Assembly (NCBI GenBank): GCA_050485485.1 | Contig: JBJHBM010000001.1 | Span: 114,916 to 178,915 of the forward strand | Reading direction: 5' to 3' | Origin: Alphaproteobacteria bacterium | GTDB taxonomy: Bacteria > Pseudomonadota > Alphaproteobacteria > SMXQ01 | Length of the DNA stretch: 64,000 nt | In this document: positions 124 to 19,897 of the stretch, in pieces | Layout of the letters: the number at the start of each line of letters is the position of its first letter | Numbering within the stretch: position 1 is the first letter of the stretch | Position numbers and translations under genes: made by a program | The notes under the pieces: model-generated | The model's database searches: none | What the model saw: the letters and a program-made list of their open reading frames with translations, nothing else | What the model was told of the DNA's origin: nothing

Positions 124-276
124 TTTCGCCCGCACTCTAGCCTGACTATAACGATAATGTCTATCTGGGCCATTGGTGATCGGGACTCGAAATCGCCTCC
201 GAATGCGGGGACAATGCCGCCAATCAATGCGCTCCGCCGCCGTGGGCGATGCCGGGGCATCGGAAGGGAGAACGGC

Positions 277-3028: not shown

Positions 3029-3333
3029 CGTGATTTCAGGATATTGCCGGGAGGTTTGGAGAAGAAGAAGGAAGATACCCGAGGGCAGATCGTTCGAATT
3101 ATTATGTTTTTGTTTTTCGCCGGGATTTTGGTTATAAGCGGTGCGCCTGCCTCTCATAACCGCGTGCCATGGAGCCGTCCGGGCGGCGGCCCGGATGCGA
3201 ACGATACGTTTTCGCCTTGCACGCCTGCCGGGGCATGTTTGAATTTCGGTCGTGCCGCGCCTCCGCGCGCCGGCCCCAACCCAGGAAAGCCGGATGCAAG
3301 GTCCGGCTGCCGATACTCAGGAGAGAGCTGAAA

Positions 3334-4812
3334 GTGGCGACAGACACAGCATCCGCGAAGAAGGGCGCCTACAAAGAGTACAGCGCGCCGCATCAGGACC
3401 TCCGCGAATGGCTCGATCGCGTGGACAACATGGGCGAACTGCTCAAGATCGACGGGGCCGACTGGAACCTCGAGATCGGCGCCGTCGCCGAGATGGTCTA
3501 TCACGAGACCCCCGACAATCCCCCGGCGCTGCTGTTCGACAACATTCCCGGCTATCCCAAGGGCTTCCGCATCCTGTCGGGCATGACCAACTCGATCAAG
3601 CGGCTGGCGCTGACCCTCGGCTTCCCCGAGCCCAGCGGGGCCATGGACGTGGTGCGCTGGTACCGCGACCGCATGAAGGATTTCGAGCCGATCCCGTCGC
3701 GCTTCGTCAACACCGGCCCGATCCTTGAGAACGTGGACCGCGACGAGGACGTGGACCTGCTCAAGTTCCCGGTGCCGCTGCTCCATGAGCTCGACGGCGG
3801 CCGCTACATCGGCACCGGCGACGTGGTCATCATGAAGGATCCGGACTCCGACTGGGTCAACTGCGGCACCTACCGCGTGATGATCCACGACAAGAACACG
3901 GTCGGCCTGTGGATGAGCCCGGGCAAGCACGGCCGCCTGATCCGCGAGAAGTACTTCAAGCAGGGCAAGCCGTGCCCCGTTGCCATCAGCGTCGGCCACG
4001 ACCCGCTGATGTTCCTCGCTGCCGGCAACGAGATCCAGTACGGCGTCTCCGAGTTCGCCTATGCGGCGGGCCATCGCGGCGCGCCGTTCGACATGATCAA
4101 GTCGGAACTGCATGGCCTGCCGGTGCCGGCCTATGGCGAAATCTGCATCGAGGGCGAGATCGTCCCCGACGACGAGCGGCCCGAGGGCCCGTTCGGCGAA
4201 TGGACCGGGTACTATGCCTCCTCCGTGCGCGAGGACCCTGTGGTGAAGGTCAAGCGCGTCTATTACCGCAACAACCCGATCATCACCATGGCGCGGCCCG
4301 GCCGCCCGCCGTCCGACTACACGCTCTCCAAGAGCGTCATCAAGTCGGCGCTGGTGTGGGACCAGGTCGAGGGCGCGGGCCTGCCCGGCGTGCAGGGCGT
4401 GTGGTGCCACCAGAACGGCGGCGGTCGCCTGTTCAACGTGATCTCGATCAAGAATTCCTACCCGGGCCATTCGCGTCAGGCGGGGCAGCTGTGCTGCAAC
4501 GTCCATGCCGGCAACTACCTGGGCCGCTGGGTGGTCGTGGTGGACGAGGACATCGATCCGTCCAACCTGTGGGACGTGACCTGGGCGATGGCCTCGCGTT
4601 GCGATCCGATCGAGGACATCGACATCACCCGCCGCGCCTGGTCGGGCGCGCTCGATCCGCGCAAGCGGGCGGGCGATAACTTCAACTCCCGCGCGATCGT
4701 CGACGCCTGCCGTCCGTTCGAGTGGAGGAGCGAATTCCCGCCGGTCGCGGAGTCCTCGCCCGAGCTCGCGGCGAAGACCCTCGATAAGTGGAAGCATTTG
4801 CTGAGCAAGTAA
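3334..4812 (+). CDS. UbiD-family (prFMN-dependent) reversible decarboxylase
   Basis: GTG start at 3334 directly after AGGAGAGAG. 492 aa with the UbiD hallmark E-x-P-E-G-P-F-G-E (RPEGPFGEWTGYY) and overall UbiD length. The codons upstream of the GTG are low-GC and rare, so they are judged non-coding. Confidence 0.85.
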   Translation: MATDTASAKKGAYKEYSAPHQDLREWLDRVDNMGELLKIDGADWNLEIGAVAEMVYHETPDNPPALLFDNIPGYPKGFRILSGMTNSIKRLALTLGFPEPSGAMDVVRWYRDRMKDFEPIPSRFVNTGPILENVDRDEDVDLLKFPVPLLHELDGGRYIGTGDVVIMKDPDSDWVNCGTYRVMIHDKNTVGLWMSPGKHGRLIREKYFKQGKPCPVAISVGHDPLMFLAAGNEIQYGVSEFAYAAGHRGAPFDMIKSELHGLPVPAYGEICIEGEIVPDDERPEGPFGEWTGYYASSVREDPVVKVKRVYYRNNPIITMARPGRPPSDYTLSKSVIKSALVWDQVEGAGLPGVQGVWCHQNGGGRLFNVISIKNSYPGHSRQAGQLCCNVHAGNYLGRWVVVVDEDIDPSNLWDVTWAMASRCDPIEDIDITRRAWSGALDPRKRAGDNFNSRAIVDACRPFEWRSEFPPVAESSPELAAKTLDKWKHLLSK

Positions 4813-4821
4813 ACCGTGTCG

Positions 4822-4850
4822 GCAAGGGCGCCCCGCAAGGGCGCCCTTGC
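4822..4850 (+). other. Perfect 12-bp-stem hairpin immediately after ubiD (GCAAGGGCGCCC-CGCAA-GGGCGCCCTTGC). It has no U-tract, so it may be an attenuator or an mRNA-stabilising stem-loop.
   Basis: Read directly from the sequence. It overlaps the 5' end of the next ORF. Confidence 0.5.
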
Positions 4851-4926
4851 TCCTTGCGTTCGCGCGTCGCGTCCTGACGCCCCGAGGGGCAGCCCCGGCG
4901 GCGCCTTTATTGCACCAGGGGAGCTC

Positions 4927-5502
4927 ATGCGCCGCCCCGGCAAACCCCAGCCTTCATTATTCAGGCAGATTTTCGGCCTGCCGTTCTGGGCCTTCGTCGC
5001 GGTCGCGGCGGCGGCCGGCATCGCCACCTGGGAGATCAAGGGACCGGCTCAGGTCGAGGCGGCCCTGCGCGGCGACCTCGACCTGCTCCTGTTCCTGCTG
5101 CCCCGGGTGCTGGGGGGTATGCTGCTCGCGGGACTCGTCCAGGTGGTGCTGCCGCCCGAGGTGGTGTCGCGCTGGGTGGGGGAGAACTCCGGCCTGCGCG
5201 GCCTCGTGATCGCGACCGTGGTGGGCGCACTCACGCCGGGCGGCCCCATGACCTCCTTCCCGATCGTGGTCGCGTTCTACATGTCCGGGGCCGATCGCGG
5301 GGCGCTGGTGGCCTATATCACGGCATGGTCGTTGCTCGGCTTCCAGCGGTTCCTGGTCTGGGAGCTGCCGCTGCTCGGGCCGGAGATCAGCCTGTTCCGC
5401 ATCCTCGTCGTGTTCTGGATGCCGGTTCTGGCCGGCCTGATCGCAAGGCGCCTGCCGTTCGGCCCGGAGACCGTTCCGCCCTCGGAAAGGGAGGGCCGCT
5501 GA
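4927..5502 (+). CDS. Predicted permease, half-size subunit 1 (YraQ/ArsP-like 'predicted permease' fold split into two genes)
   Basis: ATG 4927 after GGGGAG. Multi-TM protein with GGPMTSFPIVVAFYMSGADRGALVAYITAWSLLGFQRFLVWELPLLGPE. This is clearly paralogous to the next gene. Confidence 0.6.
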   Translation: MRRPGKPQPSLFRQIFGLPFWAFVAVAAAAGIATWEIKGPAQVEAALRGDLDLLLFLLPRVLGGMLLAGLVQVVLPPEVVSRWVGENSGLRGLVIATVVGALTPGGPMTSFPIVVAFYMSGADRGALVAYITAWSLLGFQRFLVWELPLLGPEISLFRILVVFWMPVLAGLIARRLPFGPETVPPSEREGR

Positions 5503-5503
5503 C

Positions 5504-6025
5504 GTGGACCTGCCCGCCTTCGACGTTTCGCTGGTGCTGATCTGGGGGCTGGTTGTCGTGCTCGCATACCTCGCGTGGCGGCGCGGCGAAGGCCGGTTGC
5601 AGCGGGGGCTGCGGCGCGGCATCGACATCTTCCTCGTCAACGGCCCGCGCATCGTCGTGGCGCTGCTGGCCGCCGGCTTCGTCGCCTACCTGCTGCCGGA
5701 AGGCGTGATCGCCCAGTGGCTCGGCGCGGAAGCGGGCTGGCGCGGCATCCTGATCGGCTGCCTGGTGGGGCCGTTCTTCCCCGGTGGGCCGCTCGTCATC
5801 TTCCCGGTGCTGGTGGCGCTGCTCAAGGCCGGGGCGGGGGTGCCGGCGGTGTTCGCGTTCCTGACCGCCGCCTCGCTATGGGGCGTGCATCGCATCCTCA
5901 TGTTCGAGCTGCCGATGATGGGGTCGCGCTTCACCGCCAACCGCATGATCTCCTCGCTGCTGCTGCCGCCGCTCGCGGGCTTCGTCACCGGCGCCGCAAT
6001 GCAGGTGCTGGGCATCGCCTCGTAA
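5504..6025 (+). CDS. Predicted permease, half-size subunit 2 (paralog of the preceding gene)
   Basis: GTG start 1 nt after the previous stop. GGPLVIFPVLVALLKAGAGVPAVFAFLTAASLWGVHRILMFELPMMGSR aligns with the subunit-1 motif. Confidence 0.6.
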   Translation: MDLPAFDVSLVLIWGLVVVLAYLAWRRGEGRLQRGLRRGIDIFLVNGPRIVVALLAAGFVAYLLPEGVIAQWLGAEAGWRGILIGCLVGPFFPGGPLVIFPVLVALLKAGAGVPAVFAFLTAASLWGVHRILMFELPMMGSRFTANRMISSLLLPPLAGFVTGAAMQVLGIAS

Positions 6026-6186: not shown

Positions 6187-7476
6187 ATGATGACGATTCG
6201 CTACAGTTTCGCCGCGCTGGCGGCCGGCGTCCTTGCCGCGGGCTTCCTGATGGCGCCGGCGCCGGCCGCGGCCGACCCCGTGGCCGACTTCTACAAGGGC
6301 AAGCGGATGGAGATGCTGATCGGCTACTCCTCCGGCGGCGGCTACGACACCTACGCGCGCGTGGTCGCGCGCCACTGGCCGCGCCTGATCCCCGCCCAGC
6401 CCACCATGACGCCGCGCAACGTGCCGGGCGCGGGTTCGATGCGGCTGATGAACGAGATGTACAACACCCGGCCCAAGGACGGCACCGCAGTCGCGACCGT
6501 CAGCCGCGGCATCGTCCACGAGGAGTTGTGGGGCAACCAGGGCGTCCAGTTTAGGGCCAACGAGATGCACTGGATCGGCAGCGCCAATAACGAGGTGAGC
6601 GTGTGTGCGTTCTGGAAGACCGCGCCCGCCGCCACCGTCAACGACCTGCTCAACAACGAGCTGGTGGTGGGCGGCACCGGGCCGGGCGCCGACACCGACG
6701 CCTTTCCGCAGGTGATGAACAACGTGTTCGGCAGCAAGCTCAAGCTGGTGACTGGCTACCCCGGCGGCAACGACATCAACTTCGCGATCGAGCGCGGCGA
6801 GGTCCAGGGACGTTGCGGCTGGTCGTGGTCGTCGGTGGTGGCCACGCGCGCCCAGTGGCTGAAGAACAAGGACATCCTGATCCCGATCCAGATGGCGCTG
6901 ACCAAGCACGCGGACCTGGCGGACGTGCCGCTGGTGATGGACCTCGCGCGCAACGAGCGCGAGAAGCAGCTTCTGACCCTGGTGTTCGCGCGCCAGACCA
7001 TGGGGCGTCCGTTCCTCACCACCGATCAAGTGCCGGCCGAGCGCGTCGCGATGCTGCGCAAGACCTTCATGCAGCTGATGGAGGACAAGCAGTTCCTGGC
7101 GGAAACCGAGAAGGCGCGCCTCGAGATCACCCCGGTTTCGGGTGAGGAGGTCCAGCAGCTCGTCTCCAGTCTGTTCCAGTTCCCGAAGGACGTGATCGAA
7201 GCCTCCAGGCTCGCCGCCAGCGACGCCGCACGCACCCAGGTGGTGAAGGCGGTGGTGCCGGAGGTGACGGTGACGGCGCGGGTCGCAGCCGTGCAGCGCG
7301 GCGGCGAGCGTGTCCAGTGGCAAGGCGACACCGCCAAGGGCCGCGTCAACCTCGACGGCAAGACCGAGGTGACCGTCGCCGGCAACAAGGCTACGGGCGC
7401 CGACCTGAAGGAAGGCATGACCTGCGACTTCAAGATTCTCGGCGTAGAGACGGCGCTGGCGATCGCCTGCAAGTAA
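6187..7476 (+). CDS. Bug/TctC-family solute-binding protein with an extra ~65-aa C-terminal domain ending ...GMTCDFKILGVETALAIACK
   Basis: ATG 6187 after GGGAG. Signal peptide, then ADFYKGKRMEMLIGYSSGGGYDTYARVVARHW...PGAGS. 430 aa versus ~325 aa for a canonical TctC. The C-terminal domain is homologous to the two small stand-alone proteins at 16622..17462 and to the tail of the TctC at 15031..16275. Confidence 0.8.
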   Translation: MMTIRYSFAALAAGVLAAGFLMAPAPAAADPVADFYKGKRMEMLIGYSSGGGYDTYARVVARHWPRLIPAQPTMTPRNVPGAGSMRLMNEMYNTRPKDGTAVATVSRGIVHEELWGNQGVQFRANEMHWIGSANNEVSVCAFWKTAPAATVNDLLNNELVVGGTGPGADTDAFPQVMNNVFGSKLKLVTGYPGGNDINFAIERGEVQGRCGWSWSSVVATRAQWLKNKDILIPIQMALTKHADLADVPLVMDLARNEREKQLLTLVFARQTMGRPFLTTDQVPAERVAMLRKTFMQLMEDKQFLAETEKARLEITPVSGEEVQQLVSSLFQFPKDVIEASRLAASDAARTQVVKAVVPEVTVTARVAAVQRGGERVQWQGDTAKGRVNLDGKTEVTVAGNKATGADLKEGMTCDFKILGVETALAIACK

Positions 7477-7922: not shown

Positions 7923-9767
7923 ATGGCAACGACCACCAAGCCCACCGGCGCCCAGAAACCATTTCGCAAGCCGATCCCGACCCCCAAGAAGCCGAAGCTG
8001 AAGACTGCCGGGGCCGGCCGTTTCAATTCCGACGTCATCGTCGACATGCTGCACATGTACGACATGCCGTACGCCTCGCTGAACCCGGGCGCGAGCTACC
8101 GCGGCCTGCACGACAGCATGGTGAACTACGGCGGCAACTGGCCGTACATGATGCTCTGCACCCACGAGGAGACTGCGGTCCAGATCGCCCACGGCTATTC
8201 CCGCGCCACCAACAAGCCGATGGTGGCGATCGTCCACAACCTGGTCGGCCTGCTGCATTCGAACATGGCGATCTACTACGCCTACATCGACCGCGCGCCG
8301 ATCTTCATCATCGGCGCCACCGGCCCGCTGAACGAGACCAAGCGGCGCCCGAAGATCGACTGGATCCACACGGCCAACGGCCAGGGCGCGGCGATCCGCG
8401 AATACGTCAAGTTCGACGCCCAGCCGGCCACCGTGGATGGCGTCCCCGAAGCCTTCGCGCGCGCCTATTCGGTGATGATGACCCAGCCCACCGGGCCGAT
8501 CTACATGTGCTACGACGCGTGGCTCCAGGAGGAGAAGCTCGAGCACAAGGTCGAGCTGCCGCCGCCGTCGGCGGTCAAGGTGCCGTCCAAGATGGCGCCC
8601 GACCCGGAAACCCTGCGCAAGGCGGCCGAGATGCTGGTCGCTGCCAAGTTTCCGATGCTGTTGGCCGAGTTCGCGGGCCGCTCCGAGGACGGCTACAACG
8701 CGCTCGTCGATCTCGCCGACACCCTGCACTGCGCGGTCTATGACCTCGACACGCGCTGCAACTTCCCCGGCACCCACCCCTACAATATGTCGATGATCGA
8801 CGACGTGCTGAAATCGGTGGACCTCGTGGTCGGCCTCGACGCCCAGGACTGGGAGCGCCCGACCACGCGTCTGATTTCCGCCACCCGCACGCGCGAAAGC
8901 AAGATGGCGAAAGGGTGCAAGTTCATCGACATCGGCTTTGGCGAACTCAAGATCTCGGGCTGGTCGCTCGACTACCAGCGCATGATGAACTTCGACTTGC
9001 GCATCCTCGGCGATACCGACATTGCGATCCCGATGCTCACCAAGATGTGCAAGGAGATCATCGCCAAGAGCTCCGGCCTTAAGTCGAAGCTCGAGGCGCG
9101 CGGCAAGAAGCTCGCCCAGATCCACGCGAAGAAGCGGGCGGAATGGCGCAAGGTGGGTCTCGACTCGAAGATGCGCAAGATGAGCCCGATCCCGCACGCG
9201 GTGCTCGCGACGGAAATCTGGGAAGTCATCAAGGAGCACGACTGGGTACTGACCGCGAGCACGCTCGAGGACTGGACCCGGCGCATCTGGGACTTCGATG
9301 CCCACCACCGTCACCCGGGCAAGTCGATGGGCACCTCGACCCAGATCGGCACCTCGCTCGGCGTGGCCCTCGCCAACCGCGACAAGGGGCGGCTCGTGGT
9401 GGACATCCAGCCCGACGGCGACCTCATGTTCGACGCCGGCGCGCTGTGGATCGCGGCCAAGCACAACATTCCGATGCTGATCGTGATGTACAACAACCGC
9501 GCCTACTACAACGACTGGGAACACCAGATCCGCATGGCGCGGCTGCGCAAGACCGACGAAAAGAGGGCGCATATCGGTATGGACCTGTGCGATCCGGACC
9601 CGGACTTCGCCGGCCTCGCCCGCGCGATGGGCTGGTACGCCGAGGGTCCGATCGACCGCTGCGAGGACATCCAGCCGGCGTTGCGCCGCGCGATCGAGCG
9701 GGTGCGTGCCGGCCAGCCGGCGCTCGTGGACACGATCACCCAGCGTCGCGACGCGTGGAACCAGTAG
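7923..9767 (+). CDS. Thiamine-diphosphate-dependent enzyme (acetolactate-synthase / benzoylformate-decarboxylase-like) with a Lys/Pro-rich N-terminal extension
   Basis: 614 aa. PYR domain HEETAVQIAHGYSRATNKPMVAIVHNLVGLLHSNMAIYYAYIDRAPIFIIGATGP. TPP-binding GDG...N motif (DIQPDGDLMFDAGALWIAAKHNIPMLIVMYNN). RBS AGAGGA 7 nt upstream. The 915-aa ORF on the opposite strand (7026..9773) is judged spurious. Confidence 0.85.
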   Translation: MATTTKPTGAQKPFRKPIPTPKKPKLKTAGAGRFNSDVIVDMLHMYDMPYASLNPGASYRGLHDSMVNYGGNWPYMMLCTHEETAVQIAHGYSRATNKPMVAIVHNLVGLLHSNMAIYYAYIDRAPIFIIGATGPLNETKRRPKIDWIHTANGQGAAIREYVKFDAQPATVDGVPEAFARAYSVMMTQPTGPIYMCYDAWLQEEKLEHKVELPPPSAVKVPSKMAPDPETLRKAAEMLVAAKFPMLLAEFAGRSEDGYNALVDLADTLHCAVYDLDTRCNFPGTHPYNMSMIDDVLKSVDLVVGLDAQDWERPTTRLISATRTRESKMAKGCKFIDIGFGELKISGWSLDYQRMMNFDLRILGDTDIAIPMLTKMCKEIIAKSSGLKSKLEARGKKLAQIHAKKRAEWRKVGLDSKMRKMSPIPHAVLATEIWEVIKEHDWVLTASTLEDWTRRIWDFDAHHRHPGKSMGTSTQIGTSLGVALANRDKGRLVVDIQPDGDLMFDAGALWIAAKHNIPMLIVMYNNRAYYNDWEHQIRMARLRKTDEKRAHIGMDLCDPDPDFAGLARAMGWYAEGPIDRCEDIQPALRRAIERVRAGQPALVDTITQRRDAWNQ

Positions 9768-9814: not shown

Positions 9815-10402
9815 ATGCGTAGATTGGTCGTAGGCATGTCGGGTGCGTCGGGTGCCATTTACGGCATCCGCTTCCTCGAGGTTCTCAGCAAGGCCGAGGA
9901 CATCGAGGTGCACCTGATCCTGTCGGCTTCCGCGGGCCAGACCATCGTGGACGAAACCGACTGGACGGTGTCGGACGTCAAAGCGCTCGCCGACGTGGTC
10001 TACAACAACCGGGACATCGGGGCGTCGCTGTCGAGCGGCTCCTATCGCCACGACGGGATGATCGTGGCTCCGTGCTCGGTCAAGACCCTGTCCGGGATCG
10101 TCAATTCCTACGACGACAACCTGCTGACACGCGCGGCCGACGTGTCGCTCAAGGAGAAGCGGCGCGTCGTGCTGCTGGTGCGGGAGACGCCCCTGCACCT
10201 CGGCCATATCGAACTCATGGGACGGGCGGCGAGCTACGGTGCCGTCGTCATGCCGCCCGTTCCGGCCTTCTATCATCGTCCTCAGACGTTGGACGACGTG
10301 ATTAACCAGACAGTGGGCAAGGCACTGGATCTTTTCGACATTCCCCACCGGCTGTTCCGGAGGTGGAAGGAGTCGAACAACGGGGGAGGGACGACCGGCT
10401 GA
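9815..10402 (+). CDS. ubiX: Flavin prenyltransferase UbiX/Pad1 (makes prFMN for UbiD)
   Basis: MRRLVVGMSGASGAIYGIRFLEVL... 195 aa, a typical UbiX N-terminus and length. Confidence 0.9.
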   Translation: MRRLVVGMSGASGAIYGIRFLEVLSKAEDIEVHLILSASAGQTIVDETDWTVSDVKALADVVYNNRDIGASLSSGSYRHDGMIVAPCSVKTLSGIVNSYDDNLLTRAADVSLKEKRRVVLLVRETPLHLGHIELMGRAASYGAVVMPPVPAFYHRPQTLDDVINQTVGKALDLFDIPHRLFRRWKESNNGGGTTG

Positions 10403-10489
10403 GCCGCGGGCTCGGCTTTTAACCGGCATCGATCTGCACAACAACGGCGGGCGATGCATCACTCACCACTCGCAAACAGGTGGGGTGAC

Positions 10490-12649
10490 ATGGATTATCT
10501 GATGCTGATGGCGACGAGCGCCGGCGATGCCCTTGCAATCATCGGTGAGCCCTCGCGCCTCTTCTTCCTGTTCAGCGGTGTCGTCATCGGCCTCGTGCTG
10601 GGCGTCATCCCCGGTCTCGGCGGTCTCGTCGGCCTCGCGCTCCTGCTTCCCTTCACATTCGACATGGACAGATATGCGGCCTTCGCGTTCCTTCTCGGAA
10701 TGGGGGCCGTCACGACGACGTCGGATACCATACCGGCAGTGCTGTTCGGCGTGCCCGGCACGACGGGATCGGCCGCGACCATCCTCGACGGTCACCCCCT
10801 GGCGCGCCAAGGCCATGCTGGGCGCGCTTTCGGCGCGGCCTATTCGGCCTCCCTGCTGGGCGGCCTCCTGGGCGCGCTCCTGCTCGCGGTGTCGATCCCG
10901 ATCCTGCGGCCGGTGATGCTCTATCTCGGCTCGCCGGAGCTGCTGTCGTTCTCGGTGTTCGGACTGTCGATGGTGGCGGTGCTGTCGGGTTCCTCGCCGA
11001 TGCGCGGCATCGGCGCGGCCTGCCTCGGCCTCCTGATCGCCATGGTCGGCTCAGACCCGCAGACCGGCACCCTGCGCTGGACGCTGGATTCCCTCTACCT
11101 GTGGGACGGTCTGCCGCTGGTGCCCGTCACCATCGGCCTGTTCGCGCTGCCGGAGCTCGCGGACATGGCGATCAACCGGACCTCGATCGCGCGCGACGCG
11201 AAGAGCGTGAAGTTCGACACCCGTACCGGCCAGTGGCAGGGGGTGCGCGACACGCTCAACAACTGGTGGCTGGTAGTGCGCGTCGCCTGGCTCGGTGCCT
11301 CGCTCGGCGCGATCCCGGGCCTCGGCTCCTCGATCGTGGACTGGGTCTCCTACGGTCACGCGGCCCGGACCGAGCCGCGCGCGGAGGAAACCTTCGGCAA
11401 GGGCGACATTCGCGGCGTGATCGCGCCCGAATCGTGCAACAACGCCAAGGAAGGCGGATCCCTGGTGCCGACCATCGCCTTCGGCGTGCCGGGCTCGGCC
11501 TCTATGGCGATCCTGCTCGGCGCGTTCCTGATCCACGGCCTGGTTCCGGGCCCGGACATGCTGACCAAGCACCTCGACGTCACCTATTCGATGGTGTGGT
11601 CGATCGCCATCGCCAACGTGCTCGGCGCCGGCATCTGTTTCATGTTCTCGGACCAGTTCGCGAAGCTCGCGCTGCTGCGCTACTCGATCATCATGCCGCT
11701 GGTCCTGTGCGTGGTGTTCGTGGGCGCGTACCAGGGCTCGCGGCAATGGGGCGATATCTACGCCCTGCTGGTGTTCGGTACCGTCGGCTGGGTGATGAAG
11801 CGCCTGCGCTGGCCGCGTCCGCCGGTAATCCTCGGTGTCGTGCTGGGCGGAATCGTGGAACGCTACATGTTCATCTCTGTGGAGCGTTACGGCACCGAGT
11901 GGATTTTCCCGACGAGCCTGGAGAGCGTCCGCTGGGTCGTACTGATCATGTTCGCGCTCTCGATCTACGGCCTTCTGCGCCCGCTGATCAAGGAGTACAA
12001 ATACGCCGGCGGCGTCGGCGGGATGCTCCGAAGCATGGAGCCGTCGAAGCCCCACTTCGACGCTCAGACGCTGATGTACCTCTTCTTCATCGGCGTGTTC
12101 GGCTACATGATGTACGAGGCGTCCGGCTGGAACTACGACGCCAGGATCATCCCAAACATCGTGGGCTATTTCGGCCTCACCATCCTGGCGATCAGCCTGC
12201 TCAACCATACCTTCAAGAGCGTCGAGATCACCGCCGCCCAGAGGGCCGAGCAGGCGGACGAGAGCGCCATGGGCCGGCTCAAGCGCAGCATGCATCTCGA
12301 CATCTCGGTGATGGGGCCGCAGATGCCGAAGAGGCTGCTCGCGCTCAGGGCGATCGGCTATCTCGGGTGGCTGTTCTCATTCCTGCTGTCCACGGCGCTG
12401 ATCGGCATGATTCCGTCGCTGTTCCTGCTGGTGGTCGCCTACATGAAGATCGAAGGGCGGGAATCGTGGAAGCTGACGCTGTCCTGCGCGTTCGGCCTCA
12501 TGTTGTTTTCGATCGTCCTGTTCGACAAGCTCCTGGCCCTGCCGTGGCCGCAGACGGAGTTCGGCGATCTCTACCTGATGTTCGATCAGGCGGTGCTGCA
12601 ACCCCTGACCTACTGGGTCGAGGTGCAGATGGGCTGGCGGGATCCTTGA
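10490..12649 (+). CDS. Fused TctA-TctB tripartite tricarboxylate transporter membrane protein (TctA large permease domain followed by a C-terminal TctB-like 4-TM domain)
   Basis: ATG 10490 after AGGTGGGGTG. The first ~500 aa align with the stand-alone TctA at 18389..19897 (GVPGTTGSAATILDGHPLA, ETFGKGDIRGVIAPES, GGSLVPTIAFGVPGS). The last ~200 aa align with the stand-alone TctB-like protein at 17758..18399, including RESWKL. Confidence 0.85.
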   Translation: MDYLMLMATSAGDALAIIGEPSRLFFLFSGVVIGLVLGVIPGLGGLVGLALLLPFTFDMDRYAAFAFLLGMGAVTTTSDTIPAVLFGVPGTTGSAATILDGHPLARQGHAGRAFGAAYSASLLGGLLGALLLAVSIPILRPVMLYLGSPELLSFSVFGLSMVAVLSGSSPMRGIGAACLGLLIAMVGSDPQTGTLRWTLDSLYLWDGLPLVPVTIGLFALPELADMAINRTSIARDAKSVKFDTRTGQWQGVRDTLNNWWLVVRVAWLGASLGAIPGLGSSIVDWVSYGHAARTEPRAEETFGKGDIRGVIAPESCNNAKEGGSLVPTIAFGVPGSASMAILLGAFLIHGLVPGPDMLTKHLDVTYSMVWSIAIANVLGAGICFMFSDQFAKLALLRYSIIMPLVLCVVFVGAYQGSRQWGDIYALLVFGTVGWVMKRLRWPRPPVILGVVLGGIVERYMFISVERYGTEWIFPTSLESVRWVVLIMFALSIYGLLRPLIKEYKYAGGVGGMLRSMEPSKPHFDAQTLMYLFFIGVFGYMMYEASGWNYDARIIPNIVGYFGLTILAISLLNHTFKSVEITAAQRAEQADESAMGRLKRSMHLDISVMGPQMPKRLLALRAIGYLGWLFSFLLSTALIGMIPSLFLLVVAYMKIEGRESWKLTLSCAFGLMLFSIVLFDKLLALPWPQTEFGDLYLMFDQAVLQPLTYWVEVQMGWRDP

Positions 12650-12737: not shown

Positions 12738-13808
12738 TCAGGGATGCTCGATCTGGGTGAACCACTCGGTCGGCAGTTCGCGACCGAGGCCGGCCTCGCG
12801 CGCCTTGCGGTAGGCAAGGCCGCCGACCACGGTGAATTGATAGCCGATGCCGGAATAGTTGAGGAAGCAGGTGGCCTCGCGGTCGTTCGTCCGGCCGGCC
12901 ACCCGGCCGGTGACGAGGTCGGCAAGCTCGGCCATGGATTTCTCGTCCAGGCACGCGTCGGGGGCATGGACGCCCTTGCGATCCTCGGCGAGCTCGACTC
13001 CCTGGGTGCGCACCACGAGGGGCGCGTTGTCGCGCAGATGCACGGCGCGGCGCGCGCAGGCCGCGACCGCCTCGGGCGCGATCTCGGCCGGCTTGATGGA
13101 CGAATAATGCACGCCCTCCCGCACATGGTTGTGGCCGATCACGGGATCGAGGGCATTGGTGGCGCAGGCGACGATATCGGCGTCGCGGACCACCGCTTCG
13201 ACGCTCGCCGCCGCGGCGACCTCGATCCCGAGCCGTGCCGTCATGTCGCGGGCGAAGGCGGCGCGATGGGCGGGGTTGGGGCTGTAGCACACCAGCCTTT
13301 CGAGCGGCCGTACGGCGGCCATCGCCATTGCCTGCGCGCCGGCCTGCCAGCCCGAGCCGATCACCGCCGCCACCCGGGCGTCGGCGCGCGCCATGTGGCG
13401 GGCCGCGATGCCGTTGGTGGCGCCGACCCGCATCCGCTGGACCACGCCGTCCGGGAAGATCGCGAGCGGCTCGCCGTTCTCCGTGGAGAACAGCAGCACG
13501 AGCCCGACGTAGCGTCCGCCGGGCGCGGCCGGCACCTTCTCGCGCCGGGTCGAGCCCGCGACCTCGCGCCAGCCGATGATGTCGGAATTGAGCCGGATGG
13601 AGGCGAATCCCGACGGCGCATGGACGCCGTCCATGCTCTTGAGGGCGTAGACGGTGCCCGGATCGCGGGCGGGGGCGACGATCTCGGCCCGGCCCCGATT
13701 GCCCCCGCGTCCTTCGGCGAGATCGCGGTAGCCCTCCTCGAGAACGGCGATACACTCCGGCATGGCGAGCACGCGGTCGAGCTCGTCGTTGCTGAATATC
13801 CAGGTCAT
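12738..13808 (-). CDS. Ornithine cyclodeaminase / mu-crystallin family protein (paralog 2)
   Basis: 356 aa. MTWIFSNDELDRVLAMPECIAVLEEGY... with a Rossmann-type VIGSGWQAGAQ motif. About 50% identical to the upstream paralog. Confidence 0.85.
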   Translation of the reverse strand: MTWIFSNDELDRVLAMPECIAVLEEGYRDLAEGRGGNRGRAEIVAPARDPGTVYALKSMDGVHAPSGFASIRLNSDIIGWREVAGSTRREKVPAAPGGRYVGLVLLFSTENGEPLAIFPDGVVQRMRVGATNGIAARHMARADARVAAVIGSGWQAGAQAMAMAAVRPLERLVCYSPNPAHRAAFARDMTARLGIEVAAAASVEAVVRDADIVACATNALDPVIGHNHVREGVHYSSIKPAEIAPEAVAACARRAVHLRDNAPLVVRTQGVELAEDRKGVHAPDACLDEKSMAELADLVTGRVAGRTNDREATCFLNYSGIGYQFTVVGGLAYRKAREAGLGRELPTEWFTQIEHP

Positions 13809-13832: not shown

Positions 13833-14909
13833 CTACGGATGCACCGTCTCGGTGAACCAGTCGGTGGGCAAGGCGTGGCCGATGCCGCGTTCGACCGCGC
13901 GCTTGTAGATGACCGAGCCAGCCGCCGCGAACTGGTAGCCGAGGCCGAGGTTGTTCAGGAAGCAGGTGACCTCGTCCTGGCCGCCGCGGCCTTGGGCGCG
14001 GCCGACGATCAGGTCGGGCAGGGTGGGAAATTTCCCGAAATCGAGCTTGTTGGCGGCATTCCAGCCCTTTTCCTTGCTCTCCTCCTGGAACGGCGCACCC
14101 TCGGCCACCACGATGATGGGCGCGGTATCATGGGTGTGCACCGCCACCCGGTTGGCGGCGAGGATCGCGGCCGGCTCGACCTCCGGCTTCTTGATGGAGG
14201 AGACGTGCATTCCCGGTGCGATCCACTCCTTGAAGAATACCGGGTCGATGGAATTGGTACCGCACATGGCGACGTCGGCGCCGCGCACCGCTTCTTCGGG
14301 ATGGGCGACCGGACGGATGTCGACGCCGACCACCTCGCTCATGCGGACGGCGAAAGCCTCGCGGTTGTCCTTGTTGGGGGAGAATACCCGGATTTCCTCG
14401 AAGTCGCGCACTGCGCAGGCCGCGGTGAGCTGCGTCTCCGCCTGCCAGCCCGAGCCGAGCAGCCCGAGCACGCGCGAATCCTCGCGCGCCATGTACTTGA
14501 CGCCGAGCCCGTTGGTGGCGCCAACGCGGATATGCTGCAGCACGCCGTCCGGGAAGATCGCGAGCGGCTCGCCGTTGGCGGTCGAGAACAGCAGCACCAG
14601 CCCGACGTAGCGGTCGCCGGGCGCCGCCGGCACCTTCACGCGGCGCTGGGCGTTGCCGATCACCGGGTTGGTAACGATGTCGGAGTTGATGCGGATCGCG
14701 CCGACGCCGAGCGCCGGCACCACCCCGTCCATCGACTTGAGACCGTAGATCGCATCGGGCGCATAGGAGGTGGGGGCGATGCAGTCGGAGCGCTGGCGCG
14801 TGATGCCGCGCCCGTGGGCCAACTCCTTGTAGGCCTCCTCCAGCGCTGCGATGCAGTCCGGCATGGTGAGCAGGGTTTCGACGTCGTCGTTGGACAGGAT
14901 CAGGGTCAT
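13833..14909 (-). CDS. Ornithine cyclodeaminase / mu-crystallin family protein (paralog 1)
   Basis: 358 aa. MTLILSNDDVETLLTMPDCIAALEEAY... RBS GGAGG. Lies 24 nt upstream of paralog 2. Confidence 0.85.
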   Translation of the reverse strand: MTLILSNDDVETLLTMPDCIAALEEAYKELAHGRGITRQRSDCIAPTSYAPDAIYGLKSMDGVVPALGVGAIRINSDIVTNPVIGNAQRRVKVPAAPGDRYVGLVLLFSTANGEPLAIFPDGVLQHIRVGATNGLGVKYMAREDSRVLGLLGSGWQAETQLTAACAVRDFEEIRVFSPNKDNREAFAVRMSEVVGVDIRPVAHPEEAVRGADVAMCGTNSIDPVFFKEWIAPGMHVSSIKKPEVEPAAILAANRVAVHTHDTAPIIVVAEGAPFQEESKEKGWNAANKLDFGKFPTLPDLIVGRAQGRGGQDEVTCFLNNLGLGYQFAAAGSVIYKRAVERGIGHALPTDWFTETVHP

Positions 14910-15030: not shown

Positions 15031-16275
15031 TTACTTGCAATCGATGGTGACGGGCTCGTTGTCGCCGCCCGGCTTGTAGTCGATCTCGCACGCCATGCCC
15101 GCCTTGAGGGCCTCCCGGGCTCCGGGCTTGCCGCCGATGGTGATCTTGGTGCGCGCGGCCGAGATCTTGGACTTGACGTCGTTGGCGCCGTGCTTGAAGG
15201 CGATCTCCCGCCCGTCCGGCGACACGGCGGACAGGGCGGTGGCCACCTTGCTGGCGGGCGGCACGATATTCAGGATATCCGCGACCATGGCGACGATTTC
15301 CGGCGGCTGGTCAAGGGCCTCGCGCACTTTGCGCGCGAGCTCTTCGCCGTAGAGCGGGTCGACCGGCCGGTCGGCCTTGATCGCCTGGGCCTGCAGCTCG
15401 GAGTCTTCCATCGCCTTGCGATAGGCCTCGACGAGGGTTTTGGCGCGGTCGGCCGGAATGCCCGGAGGGCCGGCCGTGAAGCGTGCGATCTCTGCCTGGG
15501 AGCCGACCAGCGCGACCACCGCCTTGGCGTTGCGCTCGGTCACGATCTCGGAAAGCAGCGGTACGCCCGGGGCCGCCTTGCCGCCGATCTGGGCGATGTA
15601 GCGGCCGTAGCCGTTCTTCACGAACAGCTCGGCCGAGGACTGGGAGCCGACGGAGGCGTCGATCTCGCCCCGGCGCATGGCCAGCTCCGCGTCGGTGCCG
15701 TCGTAGCCAAGGATCAGCTTCATGTTCCAGCCGAGCACCTTGGACAGCATCATGGTGTCGTTGTAGGCTGAAGAGCCGACGCCCGCCGAGGCAAAGCGGA
15801 CGGGCGCCCTGGCCGTCCTGAGGTCGTCGAGGGTCTTGAGGTCGGTCTGCGCCGCGGCCATGATGACGCGCGGGTCGCTCGCGGCCTTGCCGATCCAGGT
15901 CATCTTGGCGAGGTCGAAGCGCACGCCCTGGCGCCCCAGAAGCTGGGAGAAGATCAGCCCGGTGTTGAAGGTGCCGATGGTCTCGCCGTCGGGCTTCGCG
16001 GCATAGAGCAGGTTGGCGCCGATGATATGGCCGGCACCCGGCACGTTGCGCACGACGAAGGTCGAGCCGGGCAGGTGGTTCTGCATGTATCTGGCCACCA
16101 GGCGGCCGTAGAAGTCGTAGCCGCCGCCCGCCGCCGTTGCCACCACGTAGGTGACGTTCTTGCCCTTGTAGTAGTCGGCACCGTCGGCCGCTGCGGCCGC
16201 GCCCGCGAGCAGGGTAGCCCCGGCGGCGACCGCCGCGCCCAGGCGGAGGCTTCTCGTAAGTTTCGGTGTCATGGG
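15031..16275 (-). CDS. Bug/TctC-family solute-binding protein with the C-terminal small domain (...ALKAGMACEIDYKPGGDNEPVTIDCK)
   Basis: ATG 16275 after AAAGGA. Signal peptide MTPKLTRSLRLGAAVAAGATLLAGAAAA. ADYYKGKNVTYVVATAAGGGYDFYGRLVARYM...PGAGH. 415 aa. Confidence 0.8.
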   Translation of the reverse strand, partial: PMTPKLTRSLRLGAAVAAGATLLAGAAAAADGADYYKGKNVTYVVATAAGGGYDFYGRLVARYMQNHLPGSTFVVRNVPGAGHIIGANLLYAAKPDGETIGTFNTGLIFSQLLGRQGVRFDLAKMTWIGKAASDPRVIMAAAQTDLKTLDDLRTARAPVRFASAGVGSSAYNDTMMLSKVLGWNMKLILGYDGTDAELAMRRGEIDASVGSQSSAELFVKNGYGRYIAQIGGKAAPGVPLLSEIVTERNAKAVVALVGSQAEIARFTAGPPGIPADRAKTLVEAYRKAMEDSELQAQAIKADRPVDPLYGEELARKVREALDQPPEIVAMVADILNIVPPASKVATALSAVSPDGREIAFKHGANDVKSKISAARTKITIGGKPGAREALKAGMACEIDYKPGGDNEPVTIDCK

Positions 16276-16621: not shown

Positions 16622-16879
16622 TTACTTGCAGGAGACCGTGGTGGCCTTGCCGCCATCGCCCTGCACGTCGCAGGTCATGCCGTCCTGAAGCTGGTCGCGC
16701 TTGGCGGCCTGGCCCTTGATGGTGACCTGGGTGCCGGAGTTGGAGATGGCGAACTCCTGGCCGCCGACGCTGATCTGGCGGCCTTCGTTCATGACCTGAA
16801 TCTTGCCCGACGCGGCATGGGCGCTCGCGATCAGGCCGACGGCGAACACGGACGTGAGAAGAGCACTGGTGATCTTCAT
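16622..16879 (-). CDS. Small secreted protein 1 (85 aa precursor) carrying the stand-alone GMxC...CK-COOH domain
   Basis: ATG 16879 after AAAGGA. Signal peptide MKITSALLTSVFAVGLIASAHA. Mature ~63 aa: ...TQVTIKGQAAKRDQLQDGMTCDVQGDGGKATTVSCK. Confidence 0.7.
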   Translation of the reverse strand: MKITSALLTSVFAVGLIASAHAASGKIQVMNEGRQISVGGQEFAISNSGTQVTIKGQAAKRDQLQDGMTCDVQGDGGKATTVSCK

Positions 16880-17207: not shown

Positions 17208-17462
17208 TTACTTGCAGGCGATCGCGCTGGCCTCGCCCTCGCCGGTGATCTGGCAGTCCATGCCGGACTTCAGGTCGCCGCGGCCGGCGGGATTGCCGCC
17301 GATGGTGATCTGGGTACGCGATGCGGACACGGTGTAGGTCTTGCCGCCCGCTACAACCTCGCGGCCTTCATTCTTGACCTCGATCTTGGCCGCCATGGCG
17401 CCGCTCGACACCAGCATGGCCGCGGCGAAAACCGAAGATACAAGAGCAGTGGAAATCTTCAT
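17208..17462 (-). CDS. Small secreted protein 2 (84 aa precursor), paralog of small protein 1
   Basis: ATG 17462 after AAAGGA. Signal peptide MKISTALVSSVFAAAMLVSSGAMA. ...RTQITIGGNPAGRGDLKSGMDCQITGEGEASAIACK. Confidence 0.7.
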   Translation of the reverse strand: MKISTALVSSVFAAAMLVSSGAMAAKIEVKNEGREVVAGGKTYTVSASRTQITIGGNPAGRGDLKSGMDCQITGEGEASAIACK

Positions 17463-17757: not shown

Positions 17758-18399
17758 TCAATCCGGCCGCAGCCAGGTATCGACCACATAGGTGGTCACG
17801 AACCCCTCGAACAGGATCTGCTGCAGCAGGACGGAGATGATGCCGTACATCACGACCCATGACCCGGCGGTGAGGATCGCCGCGAGCTTCCAGCTCTCGC
17901 GCGCATAGTAGCGCAGGAACGCGAGCATGAAGATCGGGTAGCCGAGCCAGAAGCCGAACAGCAGCACGAGCCCGATCAGGGAGAAGAAGTAGCCGAACAG
18001 CAGCGCCTCGCGCTTGTTGCGGCTGCGCGCGGTCGTGCTCGGGTCCTCCACCAGGGTCTGGAGCTGCGTGCCTTCGGCGACGTCCATGCGGACCTTGCCT
18101 CCGGTGCGCTCCATGATCTCGGCCATGTAGCGCTCGAAGCTGGTGCGCGGGTCGATCTTGCCGCCCTGCTTGTGGTAGTTGTGCACGTCGAGCACGAGCT
18201 GGAGCAGGGTGAGTCCCATGCCCGGTATGCCGATCACGTAGGGCAGGAAGTTGGCGGGCCAGGAATAGCCGTGGGCGATCAGCACCATGCCCGCGAAGAT
18301 GGCGAACATGAGCATGGTAAAGAGCGTGCGTCCGTGAAGCAGGGCCTGCAGCACGGTGGGCTTACGCTCCGCGCCGTCGGTGCGGGGATCAGATGACAT
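17758..18399 (-). CDS. TctB-like small 4-TM subunit of the tripartite tricarboxylate transporter, encoded downstream of tctA
   Basis: ATG 18399 after AAGGAG, overlapping the tctA stop (ATGTCATCTGA). Hydrophobic 4-TM protein. Homologous to the C-terminal domain of the fused TctAB (RESWKL...). Confidence 0.7.
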   Translation of the reverse strand: MSSDPRTDGAERKPTVLQALLHGRTLFTMLMFAIFAGMVLIAHGYSWPANFLPYVIGIPGMGLTLLQLVLDVHNYHKQGGKIDPRTSFERYMAEIMERTGGKVRMDVAEGTQLQTLVEDPSTTARSRNKREALLFGYFFSLIGLVLLFGFWLGYPIFMLAFLRYYARESWKLAAILTAGSWVVMYGIISVLLQQILFEGFVTTYVVDTWLRPD

Positions 18400-19897
18400 G
18401 GCCGAGCTCCTTCTGGCTGTCCCTGTAGCCGCGGAAGATTGCATAGGCGATGGTGACCGAGATTAGCCCCATCAGGACGAGCGAAAGCGGGCGGGCGAAG
18501 AAGTCCCAGCCCCACAGCGCCCAGGCCTTGTGGAGCGAATCCTCGGCGATCGAGCCGAGCACGATGCCGATGGCGAAGGGCGGGCGCGGCCAGTCGTACT
18601 TGAGAAGGCCGTAGCCGATCACGCTCAGGATCGCGAGCAGGACCAGGTTCTCCCACTGGCCCTTGGCCAGCAGCACGCCGAACACCACCACCACCAGCAC
18701 GAACGGGATCATGATGCCGCCGCGCAGGAAGGTGAGGAACGCCACCCAGCGGGTGATGAACAGCAGGATGATGACGGCGATGATGTTGGAGATCACCAGC
18801 GCCCAGATCAGGATCCACACGAGGTCGAGCTGCTGGGTCAGCATCATCGGTCCGGGCTGGATGCCGAGGATCAGGAACGCGCCGAGCAGGATCGCCATGC
18901 CGGAGGAGCCGGGCACGCCGAAGAACAGGGTGGGGAGCAGCGAGCCGCCCTCCTTGGAGTTGGTGGCCGATTCCGGCGCGATTACGCCGCGCACGTCGCC
19001 CTTGCCGAAGGTCTCCGGGTTGCGGCAGCTTTGGACCGCGTGGCCGTAGCAGATCCACGCCGCCGCCGAGCCGCCGAGGCCCGGCAGGATGCCGATGAAC
19101 GCCCCGATCATGGAGCACCGGAACATCAGCCACATGTGGCGGAAGGTCTCCATCATGCCCTTCCACTGGGCCCGCACGCCGGTATCGGCCATGTCGCGGG
19201 AGATTGCCGAGATCGCGCCGCCCTTGACCCCGAGGTGGATCATCTCCGGCACCGCGAACAGCGCGAGGACCGCGGTGATCAGGTCGACGCCGTCCCACAG
19301 GAACAGGAAATCTCCCGAGTAGCGCGCGATGCCGGTCTGTGGGTCCATGCCGACGAATGCCAGCATCATGCCGTAGAGGCCCACCACGATGCCCTTGAAG
19401 ATGGCAGAGCCCGACACGAAGGCGACGAAGGTGATGCCGAGCAGGGCGAGGAAGAAGAATTCGGCGGGCGAGAACTTGAGCACGATCGGCTCAATCACGG
19501 GGATCAGCACCGCCAGCACCGCGGCGCCGAGGATGCCCCCTATGCCTGAGGCCATCAGGCTCGCGCCGAGCGCCATGCCTGCCTGGCCCTTCTGCGCCAG
19601 CGGGTAGCCGTCGACGATGGTGGCGGCGTCGTCGCCGGTGCCCGGCACCCCGAACATGATCGACGATATCTGCCCCGCCGTCCCGGTGACGGCGTGCATG
19701 GACAGCAGGAACACCGCGCCCGCGATCATTTCCTGTCCGAACACAAACGGGATCATTATCGCGATCGCAAGTCTTCCGCCGAGTCCGGGCACGGCCCCGA
19801 AGAAGATGCCGATACAGGTGCCGAAGATCATCATCCACAGCACGTACGGCGATGTCATCAAATGCACGAGCGTGCCAAAGATCACATCTATGGACAT
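18389..19897 (-). CDS. TctA large permease subunit of the tripartite tricarboxylate transporter
   Basis: 502 aa with GVPGTGDDAATIVDGYPLAQKGQAG, ETFGKGDVRGVIAPES and GGSLLPTLFFGVPGSSGMAILLGAF. The family's internal duplicated structure is present. Confidence 0.9.
   Translation of the reverse strand: MSIDVIFGTLVHLMTSPYVLWMMIFGTCIGIFFGAVPGLGGRLAIAIMIPFVFGQEMIAGAVFLLSMHAVTGTAGQISSIMFGVPGTGDDAATIVDGYPLAQKGQAGMALGASLMASGIGGILGAAVLAVLIPVIEPIVLKFSPAEFFFLALLGITFVAFVSGSAIFKGIVVGLYGMMLAFVGMDPQTGIARYSGDFLFLWDGVDLITAVLALFAVPEMIHLGVKGGAISAISRDMADTGVRAQWKGMMETFRHMWLMFRCSMIGAFIGILPGLGGSAAAWICYGHAVQSCRNPETFGKGDVRGVIAPESATNSKEGGSLLPTLFFGVPGSSGMAILLGAFLILGIQPGPMMLTQQLDLVWILIWALVISNIIAVIILLFITRWVAFLTFLRGGIMIPFVLVVVVFGVLLAKGQWENLVLLAILSVIGYGLLKYDWPRPPFAIGIVLGSIAEDSLHKAWALWGWDFFARPLSLVLMGLISVTIAYAIFRGYRDSQKELGHVI

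Follow-up and report, generated by a model that had tools for sequence, protein, structure and literature searches.

To our knowledge, tripartite tricarboxylate transporters (TTT) are the least understood family among binding-protein-dependent transporters. The canonical citrate transporters of Salmonella and Bordetella (tctCBA and bctCBA) are encoded by separate genes in the order C-B-A, with a TctA of about 500 residues. TctA carries the motif G-Hy3-G-Hy3-G-Hy2-P-G-Hy-G, which is duplicated in its two halves (Winnen et al. 2003, quoted in PMC5812351). The small subunit BctB has been modelled beside a scaffold domain of BctA made up of residues 145-231 and 393-507 (bioRxiv 10.64898/2026.07.27.740893). 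Other layouts were described by Rosa et al. 2018 (PMC5812351), who reported tctB downstream of tctA in the slcHFG genes and, as a rare single case, a fused TctAB protein in Paraburkholderia caribensis. We found no literature on TctAB fusion beyond that paper. A small and a large membrane subunit are also joined in one chain in the DctQ-DctM fusions of TRAP transporters, such as SiaQM of Haemophilus influenzae, in which the small part precedes the large part and an extra transmembrane helix is needed, giving 17 helices in total.

We analysed a 64,000-nucleotide stretch of DNA (the window) that contains two transporter sets made up of the same three protein families as the canonical citrate transporters, one set on each strand. 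An earlier note had claimed that tctB follows tctA in both sets and that in one set the two are fused. Both layouts are real: the claimed gene order and fusion are supported by Pfam matches that exceed the cut-offs, by pairwise and profile-profile homology, and by the recurrence of this architecture in dozens of other genomes. The window very probably encodes two TTT systems of a TctB-after-TctA sub-type, one fused without an extra helix and the other split and probably translationally coupled. The novelty that the note had implied does not hold, since Rosa et al. 2018 (PMC5812351) had already described both an A-then-B order and a fused TctAB, and the fused proteins form a large family. Although correct, the finding is an ordinary one, as both layouts are common. 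Our addition to the literature is a modest one, namely that the fusion represents a conserved clade, whereas the published example was a rare single case.

The fused TctA-TctB permease gene is located on the plus strand at 10490..12649 and encodes 719 aa plus a stop, with Pfam matches to both TctA and TctB. The list of open reading frames gives its extent as 10454/10490..12649 (+). The ATG at 10490 is favoured as the start by the purine-rich sequence GGTGGGGTG directly upstream, by homologs that begin MDYL, and by a database copy of 719 aa (P0001) that is 100% identical. The TctA domain (PF01970, TC 2.A.80; 10559..11833, plus strand, residues 24-448) scored 437 bits (E 8e-131, cut-off 28.9) over model positions 1-423 of 423, and the two TctA proteins of the window are 43% identical. 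Both copies of the duplicated glycine motif were found in the fusion, the first as GVVIGLVLGVIPGLGG at residues 30-45 and the second as GASLGAIPGLG at residues 269-279, with the motif glycines and prolines invariant or nearly so amongst 47 homologs. TctB was not listed in the Pfam scan of the full-length fusion, and appeared when the C-terminal 229 aa were scanned alone, with a PF07331 match of 33.1 bits against a cut-off of 29.1 at residues 531-687 (12080..12550, plus strand). The C-terminal 200 aa, on whose similarity to TctB the earlier claim depended, do therefore have such similarity.

In an AlphaFold2 model of the fusion (mean pLDDT 78, pTM 0.78 for the whole chain), the last TctA helix (11933..12007, plus strand, residues 482-506) coincides with a hydropathy peak, and by hydropathy peaks corresponds to the C-terminal hydrophobic segment 465-491 of the unfused 502-aa TctA. 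This helix is followed by a non-hydrophobic, K/R-rich linker (12008..12061, plus strand, residues 507-524) which is probably cytoplasmic. Averaged over the 47 homologs, residues 497-526, around the linker, contain 5.1 K+R versus 2.1 D+E, and the loop preceding the penultimate TctA helix has a net charge of +3.4. A K/R-rich linker before helix 1 fits a cytoplasmic TctB N-terminus. The AlphaFold2 model and the charge and hydropathy of the linker show no extra helix there. Placed end-to-end, the split pair (502 + 213 aa) matches the length of the fused 719-aa protein, so that the fused chain does not require an additional helix to connect its parts.

C-terminal to TctA, the AlphaFold2 model has four long hydrophobic helices, at residues 525-544, 549-575, 614-655 (kinked at P641) and 660-681. 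Hydropathy clearly supported three TctB helices, and the first more weakly. TctB subunits are expected to have four or five transmembrane helices and an N-terminus in the cytoplasm. In the fusion, the 614-655 stretch may be either one kinked helix or a hairpin, leaving the topology past TctB helix 3 ambiguous. Helices 2 and 3 are separated by a long loop (12215..12328, plus strand, residues 576-613) with a mean length of about 39 aa and 4.8 K+R across homologs, in which model confidence is low (pLDDT < 50 at residues 582-590). D604 in this loop is invariant in the family and H602 near-invariant (H-x-D), and from this conservation the two residues could form a regulatory or ion-binding functional site without counterpart in canonical TctB. 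The C-terminal tail of the fusion (helix 690-714) is common only to its closest relatives.

The second set is encoded on the minus strand, where the genes on one strand are ordered tctA, tctB, two small ORFs and tctC. Its unfused tctA (18389..19897, minus strand) encodes 502 aa and matches PF01970 with 388 bits (cut-off 28.9). Directly downstream, tctB (17758..18399, minus strand) encodes 213 aa, a length also given by an independent gene call on a public contig, and matches PF07331 with 31.9 bits (cut-off 29.1). The start of tctB overlaps the stop of tctA by 11 nt (18389..18399, minus strand), read directly as ATGTCATCTGA exactly as had been claimed. The ATG of tctB is preceded, at a distance of 7 nt, by a Shine-Dalgarno sequence, AAGGAG (18412..18407, minus strand). 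With this start/stop overlap and a Shine-Dalgarno sequence within the end of tctA, the subunits of the split set would probably be paired via translational coupling. The A-then-B order of this set is kept in five related loci (L006, L007, L015, L024 and L045). By its published description (PMC5812351), slcHFG of Roseovarius nubinhibens and Chromohalobacter salexigens likewise has the small-subunit gene 3' of the large-subunit gene. The minus-strand set differs from slcHFG in having two small secreted-protein genes between tctB and tctC, and in having the binding-protein gene last rather than first.

The C-terminal part of the fusion and the stand-alone TctB are homologous to each other, judging from their sequences. 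BLASTP aligned the two with E 5e-9 and 24% identity, including the RESWKL motif from which, together with the TM pattern, this homology had originally been proposed, and profile-profile comparison gave a probability of 98.2% and E 5e-14 over 154 columns. Both copies have approximately 25-35 residues more than the matched Pfam model positions; in the alignments, the additional residues fall within the long loop that joins helix 2 to helix 3. The TctB parts of the window (about 195-213 aa) have a long helix 2-3 loop, whereas Salmonella TctB is smaller, at 19 kDa (PMC5812351). Their description as divergent from textbook TctB holds only in degree, through these additional loop residues, but both copies do pass the Pfam threshold, narrowly, by 3-4 bits.

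The TctAB protein of P. caribensis MBA4 (668 aa) is of the same family as the window fusion and, like it, is encoded by one ORF in which TctA precedes TctB. Residues 430-719 of the window protein, covering the junction and TctB, are 35.6% identical to it (E 1e-35). The fused clade has three TctB motifs, namely H-x-D (in the helix 2-3 loop), M-[RK]-x-E-[GA]-x-E-x-W and P-W-P; these occur as HLD, MKIEGRESWK and LPWP in the window protein, and as HMD, MRIEGRESW and PWP in P. caribensis, and were also seen in the loci from our genome scan. With these motifs, and with TctA and TctB in one frame without a stop between them, the window fusion belongs to the TctAB fusion clade of P. caribensis type. 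It differs from the P. caribensis protein in its length of 719 aa, with a longer C-terminal tail, and in lying within an alphaproteobacterial-type gene cluster. The TRAP DctQM fusions have no sequence relationship to the window fusion, and are also built differently, since the window fusion has the large part before the small, a soluble linker and no added helix. Membership of the TRAP DctQM fusions was rejected, as Pfam scans of the fusion and of its C-terminal piece gave no DctQ or DctM match and there is no linking helix.

The best 120 database clusters were 59-100% identical to the fusion and 605-965 aa in length, nearly all of them 670-720 aa, and in most of these both PF01970 and PF07331 were precomputed. 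We also scanned genomes, one per species, with a motif pattern. The broader TctB alignment (A3) was too diverse for a search pattern, and the pattern was instead made from a narrower alignment (A4). This pattern is specific to the fused clade, and the resulting counts, 176 confirmed relatives and 78 loci kept, apply to the fused clade only. Complete TctA and TctB were present in one ORF in 69 of the 78 loci. The contig end cuts eight more, in seven of which TctA is still continuous with TctB; the eighth has too little upstream DNA to judge continuity. The one other locus (L003) has a frame break, inside TctA. There was no stop codon between TctA and TctB in any of the 78 loci. By this sequence comparison, the fusion is a conserved clade of well over a hundred species and not an isolated rarity. 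A search with the TctB part among representatives returned mostly short proteins, several of which start within the linker or the last TctA helix; we rejected these as a stand-alone form and take them for fused genes that are fragmentary or have mis-called starts. In annotated genomes the fusion is a single CDS, of 668 or 682 aa, that neighbors a gene for a TTT binding protein, and tctB does not occur there as a gene of its own. Since GenBank/RefSeq label such genes as a single "tripartite tricarboxylate transporter permease" CDS, genomes carrying them can seem to lack tctB.

We considered whether an assembly or sequencing artefact, through a lost stop or a frameshift, had joined separate tctA and tctB genes. 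The 11-nt overlap in the split set means that one indel could join such genes, and a frame break does occur in L003, although inside TctA. However, the single ORF recurs in independent genomes (69 of 78, with no stop between the parts in any) and in no fewer than 120 protein clusters, it is annotated as one CDS in the finished genomes of cultured bacteria, and the linker itself is alignable across homologs, with conserved positions such as G507 and G508. We consider the probability of an artefact to be negligible. It is also highly improbable that the C-terminal 200 aa represent some other membrane domain of four helices, DctQ-like or DUF5391-like and unrelated to TctB, with a weak TctB score by chance. 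Such a reading could appeal to a Pfam score only about 4 bits over the cut-off, to the missing TctB entry in the full-length scan, to a weak DUF5391 match of the C-terminal piece (E 0.03), and to the poor conservation of TctB as a family (PMC5812351). Against this, the TctB match covers positions 5-137 of the 137 in the model, DUF5391 scores 14.9, far short of its cut-off of 25.7, PF07331 is precomputed in most homologs, and the homologous stand-alone protein in the tctA-tctB-tctC operon independently passes the TctB cut-off.

A further alternative accepts the fusion but not its partnership with a binding protein: the fused permease would be a stand-alone secondary carrier in which TctB replaces docking, and the TctC-like genes would serve only the split system or signalling. 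Archaeal TctA homologs have been reported without TctB and TctC (PMC5812351). In the window, two enzyme genes separate the binding-protein gene from the fusion gene, and the nearby binding protein (SBP1) gave no direct match to TctC in the Pfam scan. However, in about 40 of the 78 loci an SBP1-like gene, and in some of them two or three such genes, lies no more than 6 kb from the fused gene, and SBP1-like genes beside fused permeases in annotated genomes are annotated as TTT substrate-binding proteins. In addition, six loci (L001-L004, L007 and L008) share the order SBP1-enzyme-enzyme-TctAB. A stand-alone carrier is therefore very unlikely, and we read the plus-strand set as a putative binding-protein-dependent TTT system.

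SBP1, the TctC-type binding protein of the plus-strand set, is encoded at 6190..7476 (plus strand; start at 6187 or 6190). The TctC-type binding protein of the minus-strand set (15031..16272, minus strand) has 413 aa, matches PF03401 with 51 bits and is 100% identical to a 413-aa database protein (P0290). The two binding proteins share 27% identity (E 2e-45). The neighboring genes encode UbiD/UbiX, a thiamine-diphosphate enzyme, an aldehyde dehydrogenase and a member of the ornithine-cyclodeaminase family, which suggests a catabolised organic acid as the substrate.

From family knowledge and published models of BctCBA, the periplasmic TctC-type protein would deliver a carboxylate to TctA, which the models portray as an elevator-type symporter driven by a presumed coupling ion. 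The same models predict that TctB packs against the static half of TctA, its scaffold, to which the C-terminus of TctA belongs. In the fused protein, the predicted path runs from the last TctA helix through the linker of about 20 residues, probably cytoplasmic, to the first of the four TctB helices. It follows from the fusion that the C-terminus of TctA and the N-terminus of TctB should be close together on the same side of the membrane, in keeping with the published model of TctB as an extension of the TctA scaffold. If TctB does pack on the scaffold in this way, the fusion would fix a 1:1 ratio and the co-insertion of scaffold and accessory. A sequence search of the PDB found no relative, and a Foldseek comparison of the AlphaFold2 model with PDB entries yielded nothing at E < 0.001 (TM-scores about 0.1). 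As no TTT membrane structure was found in the PDB, the scaffold role and the elevator mechanism rest on models. With its fixed stoichiometry and a single gene, a one-chain TctA-TctB would be convenient for expression and cryo-EM.

We also observed a β-module (a β-barrel) of approximately 65 aa with two cysteines, which is C-terminal in both binding proteins and occurs in two free-standing ORFs. The module had no Pfam match, and a profile search with a module alignment, for which the word index was limiting with a 65-aa query, retrieved only three proteins, two of them from the window. It is conceivable, though we think it unlikely, that the module would be a hitherto undescribed fourth TTT component acting, for example, in docking, or in ligand or metal handling with the enlarged TctB; a functional role for D604 and H602, as a separate proposal, is given the same low likelihood. 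Amongst the TctC-type binding proteins of this transporter subfamily, one to three copies of the module are appended. The two free-standing module ORFs of the window encode secreted proteins and lie in the split set, with tctB on one side and tctC on the other.

The gene at 10490..12649 (+) had been read as a TctA-TctB fusion of the tripartite tricarboxylate transporter (TTT) family, and a TctB-like protein had been placed after TctA in both transporter sets. The plus-strand ORF spans 10454..12649, and from the ATG at 10490, with GGTGGGGTG directly 5' of it, it encodes 719 aa. The same start is found in the identical database protein P0001 and in homologues with N-terminal MDYL. Pfam analysis placed the full TctA model (PF01970) on residues 24-448 with 437 bits. 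TctB was absent from the Pfam listing for the full-length scan. When the C-terminal 229 aa were scanned separately, TctB (PF07331) matched over model positions 5-137 of 137 with 33.1 bits, above the curated cut-off of 29.1 bits, so the C-terminus does have the similarity to TctB on which the earlier note had staked its reading.

The same order was present as two genes on the minus strand, where tctA (18389..19897, 502 aa, TctA 388 bits) is followed by tctB as the next ORF (17758..18399, TctB 31.9 bits), which is 213 aa also by the public gene call on the identical contig. The proposed 11-nt overlap is there: ATGTCATCTGA at 18399..18389 contains the start codon of tctB together with the stop codon of tctA, and AAGGAG lies 7 nt 5' of the tctB ATG. 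The two sets share 43% identity in TctA. Their TctB parts, proposed to be homologous, aligned with E 5e-9, RESWKL included, and comparison of a profile of the fused TctB domain with a profile of split-TctB orthologues gave 98.2% probability (E 5e-14, 154 columns). This confirmed the earlier observation of A-then-B order and fusion in every particular, and supported its interpretation.

We considered whether the fusion might be an artefact. The 120 best clusters for the fusion in a large protein collection were 59-100% identical and 605-965 aa long, nearly all 670-720 aa, and most carried precomputed PF01970 and PF07331 together. An alignment of 47 homologues taken from these clusters was collinear across the junction, with P555, S569, D604, R620, G639, M652, E655, E658, F678, L682, W686 and P687 invariant in the TctB part. 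We also derived the motif M[RK][VLI]E[GA]xE[PS]W[KR] from the fused TctB domain and searched for it in a set with a single genome for each species, which gave 176 confirmed relatives and 78 loci kept for an in-frame walk upstream from each TctB match. Complete TctA and TctB lay within a single ORF at 69 of these 78 loci. Eight ended at a contig edge; seven of them still ran from TctA into TctB in one frame, and one had too little upstream DNA to judge. The remaining locus, L003, had a frame break inside TctA. None of the 78 had a stop codon between TctA and TctB. Finally, a junction-plus-TctB query of a plasmid and megaplasmid collection found matches in Paraburkholderia, Burkholderia, Paracoccus, Sinorhizobium, Neorhizobium and Pacificitalea; those annotated were a single CDS (668 or 682 aa) named 'tripartite tricarboxylate transporter permease', adjoining a TTT substrate-binding protein gene and with no separate tctB beside it in those annotated records. 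Recurrence in clusters, in 69 of the 78 loci kept and as annotated single CDSs rules out an artefact. The fused proteins form a conserved clade (at least 176 genome matches), and the two parts are joined wherever the DNA permits checking. Hosts of the fused loci were mostly Alphaproteobacteria (Beijerinckiaceae, other Hyphomicrobiales, Micropepsaceae, Ancylobacter, Terripilifer and Donghicola), with others in Ralstonia, Paraburkholderia, Bordetella and one Gemmatimonas genome bin. At three loci (L021, L024 and L032) the fused gene had a second TctB-like match ~2 kb upstream, which suggests tandem fused or split TTT permease copies.

Four extra membrane helices had been expected at the C-terminus, and an AlphaFold2 model that took the alignment of 47 homologues as input (mean pLDDT 78, pTM 0.78) predicted four long hydrophobic TctB helices, at 525-544, 549-575, 614-655 (with a kink at P641) and 660-681. 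Model confidence was low for the loop of ~40 residues between TctB helices 2 and 3, and only the closest relatives have the tail helix at 690-714. Between the Pfam TctA region and TctB, the model has helices at 444-471 and 482-506, the second of which is the counterpart of the hydrophobic segment at the C-terminus of unfused TctA, and a non-helical linker at 507-524. The split pair totals 715 aa (502 + 213) against 719 aa fused, indicating no insertion at the junction; the fusion is a plain end-to-end join. Over the 47 homologues, net charge was +3.4 in the loop before helix 444 and roughly neutral in the short loop 466-481; K+R was 5.1 against D+E 2.1 in the linker, and K+R was 0.4 in the loop between TctB helices 1 and 2. 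These counts agree with the positive-inside rule and would put the C-terminus of TctA and the N-terminus of TctB on the cytoplasmic side of the membrane.

Both the A-then-B order and a TctAB fusion are already described (Rosa et al. 2018, PMC5812351), and such proteins are regularly annotated, though under names that say little. tctB lies downstream of tctA in some TTT systems, such as slcHFG of Roseovarius nubinhibens and Chromohalobacter salexigens (PMC5812351). On the megaplasmid of Paraburkholderia caribensis MBA4, an ORF of 668 aa shares the HMD, MRIEGRESW and PWP motifs with the window protein, which puts the published fusion in the same family. TRAP DctQ-DctM fusions have small-then-large order and need an extra transmembrane helix (PMC5812351); the window fusion, in contrast, is large-then-small with nothing inserted. 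Our survey adds scale, in the form of a conserved fused clade, and one detail, the plain end-to-end join.

A PDB sequence search found no solved structure of a TTT membrane subunit, and Foldseek of the model gave no meaningful match. In a BctCBA model from a recent preprint, BctA has an elevator domain and a scaffold made up of residues 145-231 and 393-507, BctB lies beside the scaffold as its possible extension, and BctC docks on the scaffold side (10.64898/2026.07.27.740893). If this holds, TctB attached to the TctA C-terminus, a scaffold element, would be structurally natural, and fusion would simply secure a 1:1 ratio and co-insertion. Translational coupling via the 11-nt overlap would be the split set's probable route to the same pairing. 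An A-B fusion needs A-then-B adjacency, and the long helix 2-3 loop and E-x-W motif common to the split TctB and the fused domain are consistent with an origin in an A-then-B operon. The split A-then-B pair was retained in five related loci carrying the fused permease (L006, L007, L015, L024 and L045), as the earlier note had suggested looking for.

The window has four TctC-like genes for two membrane units; fused permeases elsewhere are often near one to three. The binding protein closest to the fused permease, 6190..7476 (+), is not recognised by the Pfam TctC model and gave just a weak NMT1_3 match (E 0.1). It is clearly homologous (E 2e-45) to the second binding protein, 15031..16272 (-), which does match Pfam TctC, and so evidently belongs to a branch that the Pfam model misses. 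Two further genes, 1922..2911 (+) and 28154..29110 (-), encode TctC-like proteins 52% and 31% identical to the 6190..7476 protein and lack the C-terminal extension of the first two. This ~65-aa two-cysteine module (7270..7473 (+) and 15034..15240 (-)) also occurs free-standing in two secreted ORFs between the split-set tctC and tctB (16622..16879 and 17208..17462, both (-); 84/85 aa). Its pattern is …SGSRTKI.I.GK…L..GM.C.I…CK, with two conserved cysteines and CK usually at the end. Nearly all relatives of the second binding protein have one module, and some have two or three tandem copies. We found no consistent Pfam or NCBIfam match for it; AlphaFold2 gave a confident small all-β model of seven strands (pLDDT 85), whose best PDB resemblance, to PilY2, was weak (TM-score 0.56, E 0.09). 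Most binding-protein genes beside fused permeases matched the TctC part of the query only, so the module and the fused permease do not, as a rule, go together. It is the likeliest place for something new in the region.

The order binding protein, thiamine-diphosphate enzyme (7923..9767, +), UbiX-type flavoprotein (9815..10402, +), TctAB and two opposite-strand ornithine-cyclodeaminase/mu-crystallin paralogues (12738..13808 and 13833..14909, -) was retained in L001-L004, L007 and L008, and L001, L002 and L007 also retained the second binding protein, small ORFs and split tctB. Several alphaproteobacterial genome bins show synteny over the stretch that runs from the gene for the thiamine-diphosphate enzyme to those of the cyclodeaminase family. 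Upstream, an aldehyde dehydrogenase (157..1758, +) and a UbiD-family decarboxylase (3169..4812, +) complete a catabolic-looking set; two cupins and an MFS transporter lie downstream of the split set. These neighbours point to an organic acid as cargo, which is then decarboxylated or otherwise degraded. The adjacent ORFs 4816..5502 and 5504..6025 (+) match separate halves of the Pfam 'predicted permease' model ArsP_1, the later half first (positions 180-292, just over the cut-off, then 18-130, just under). They could represent a pair of half-size permeases or one rearranged gene.
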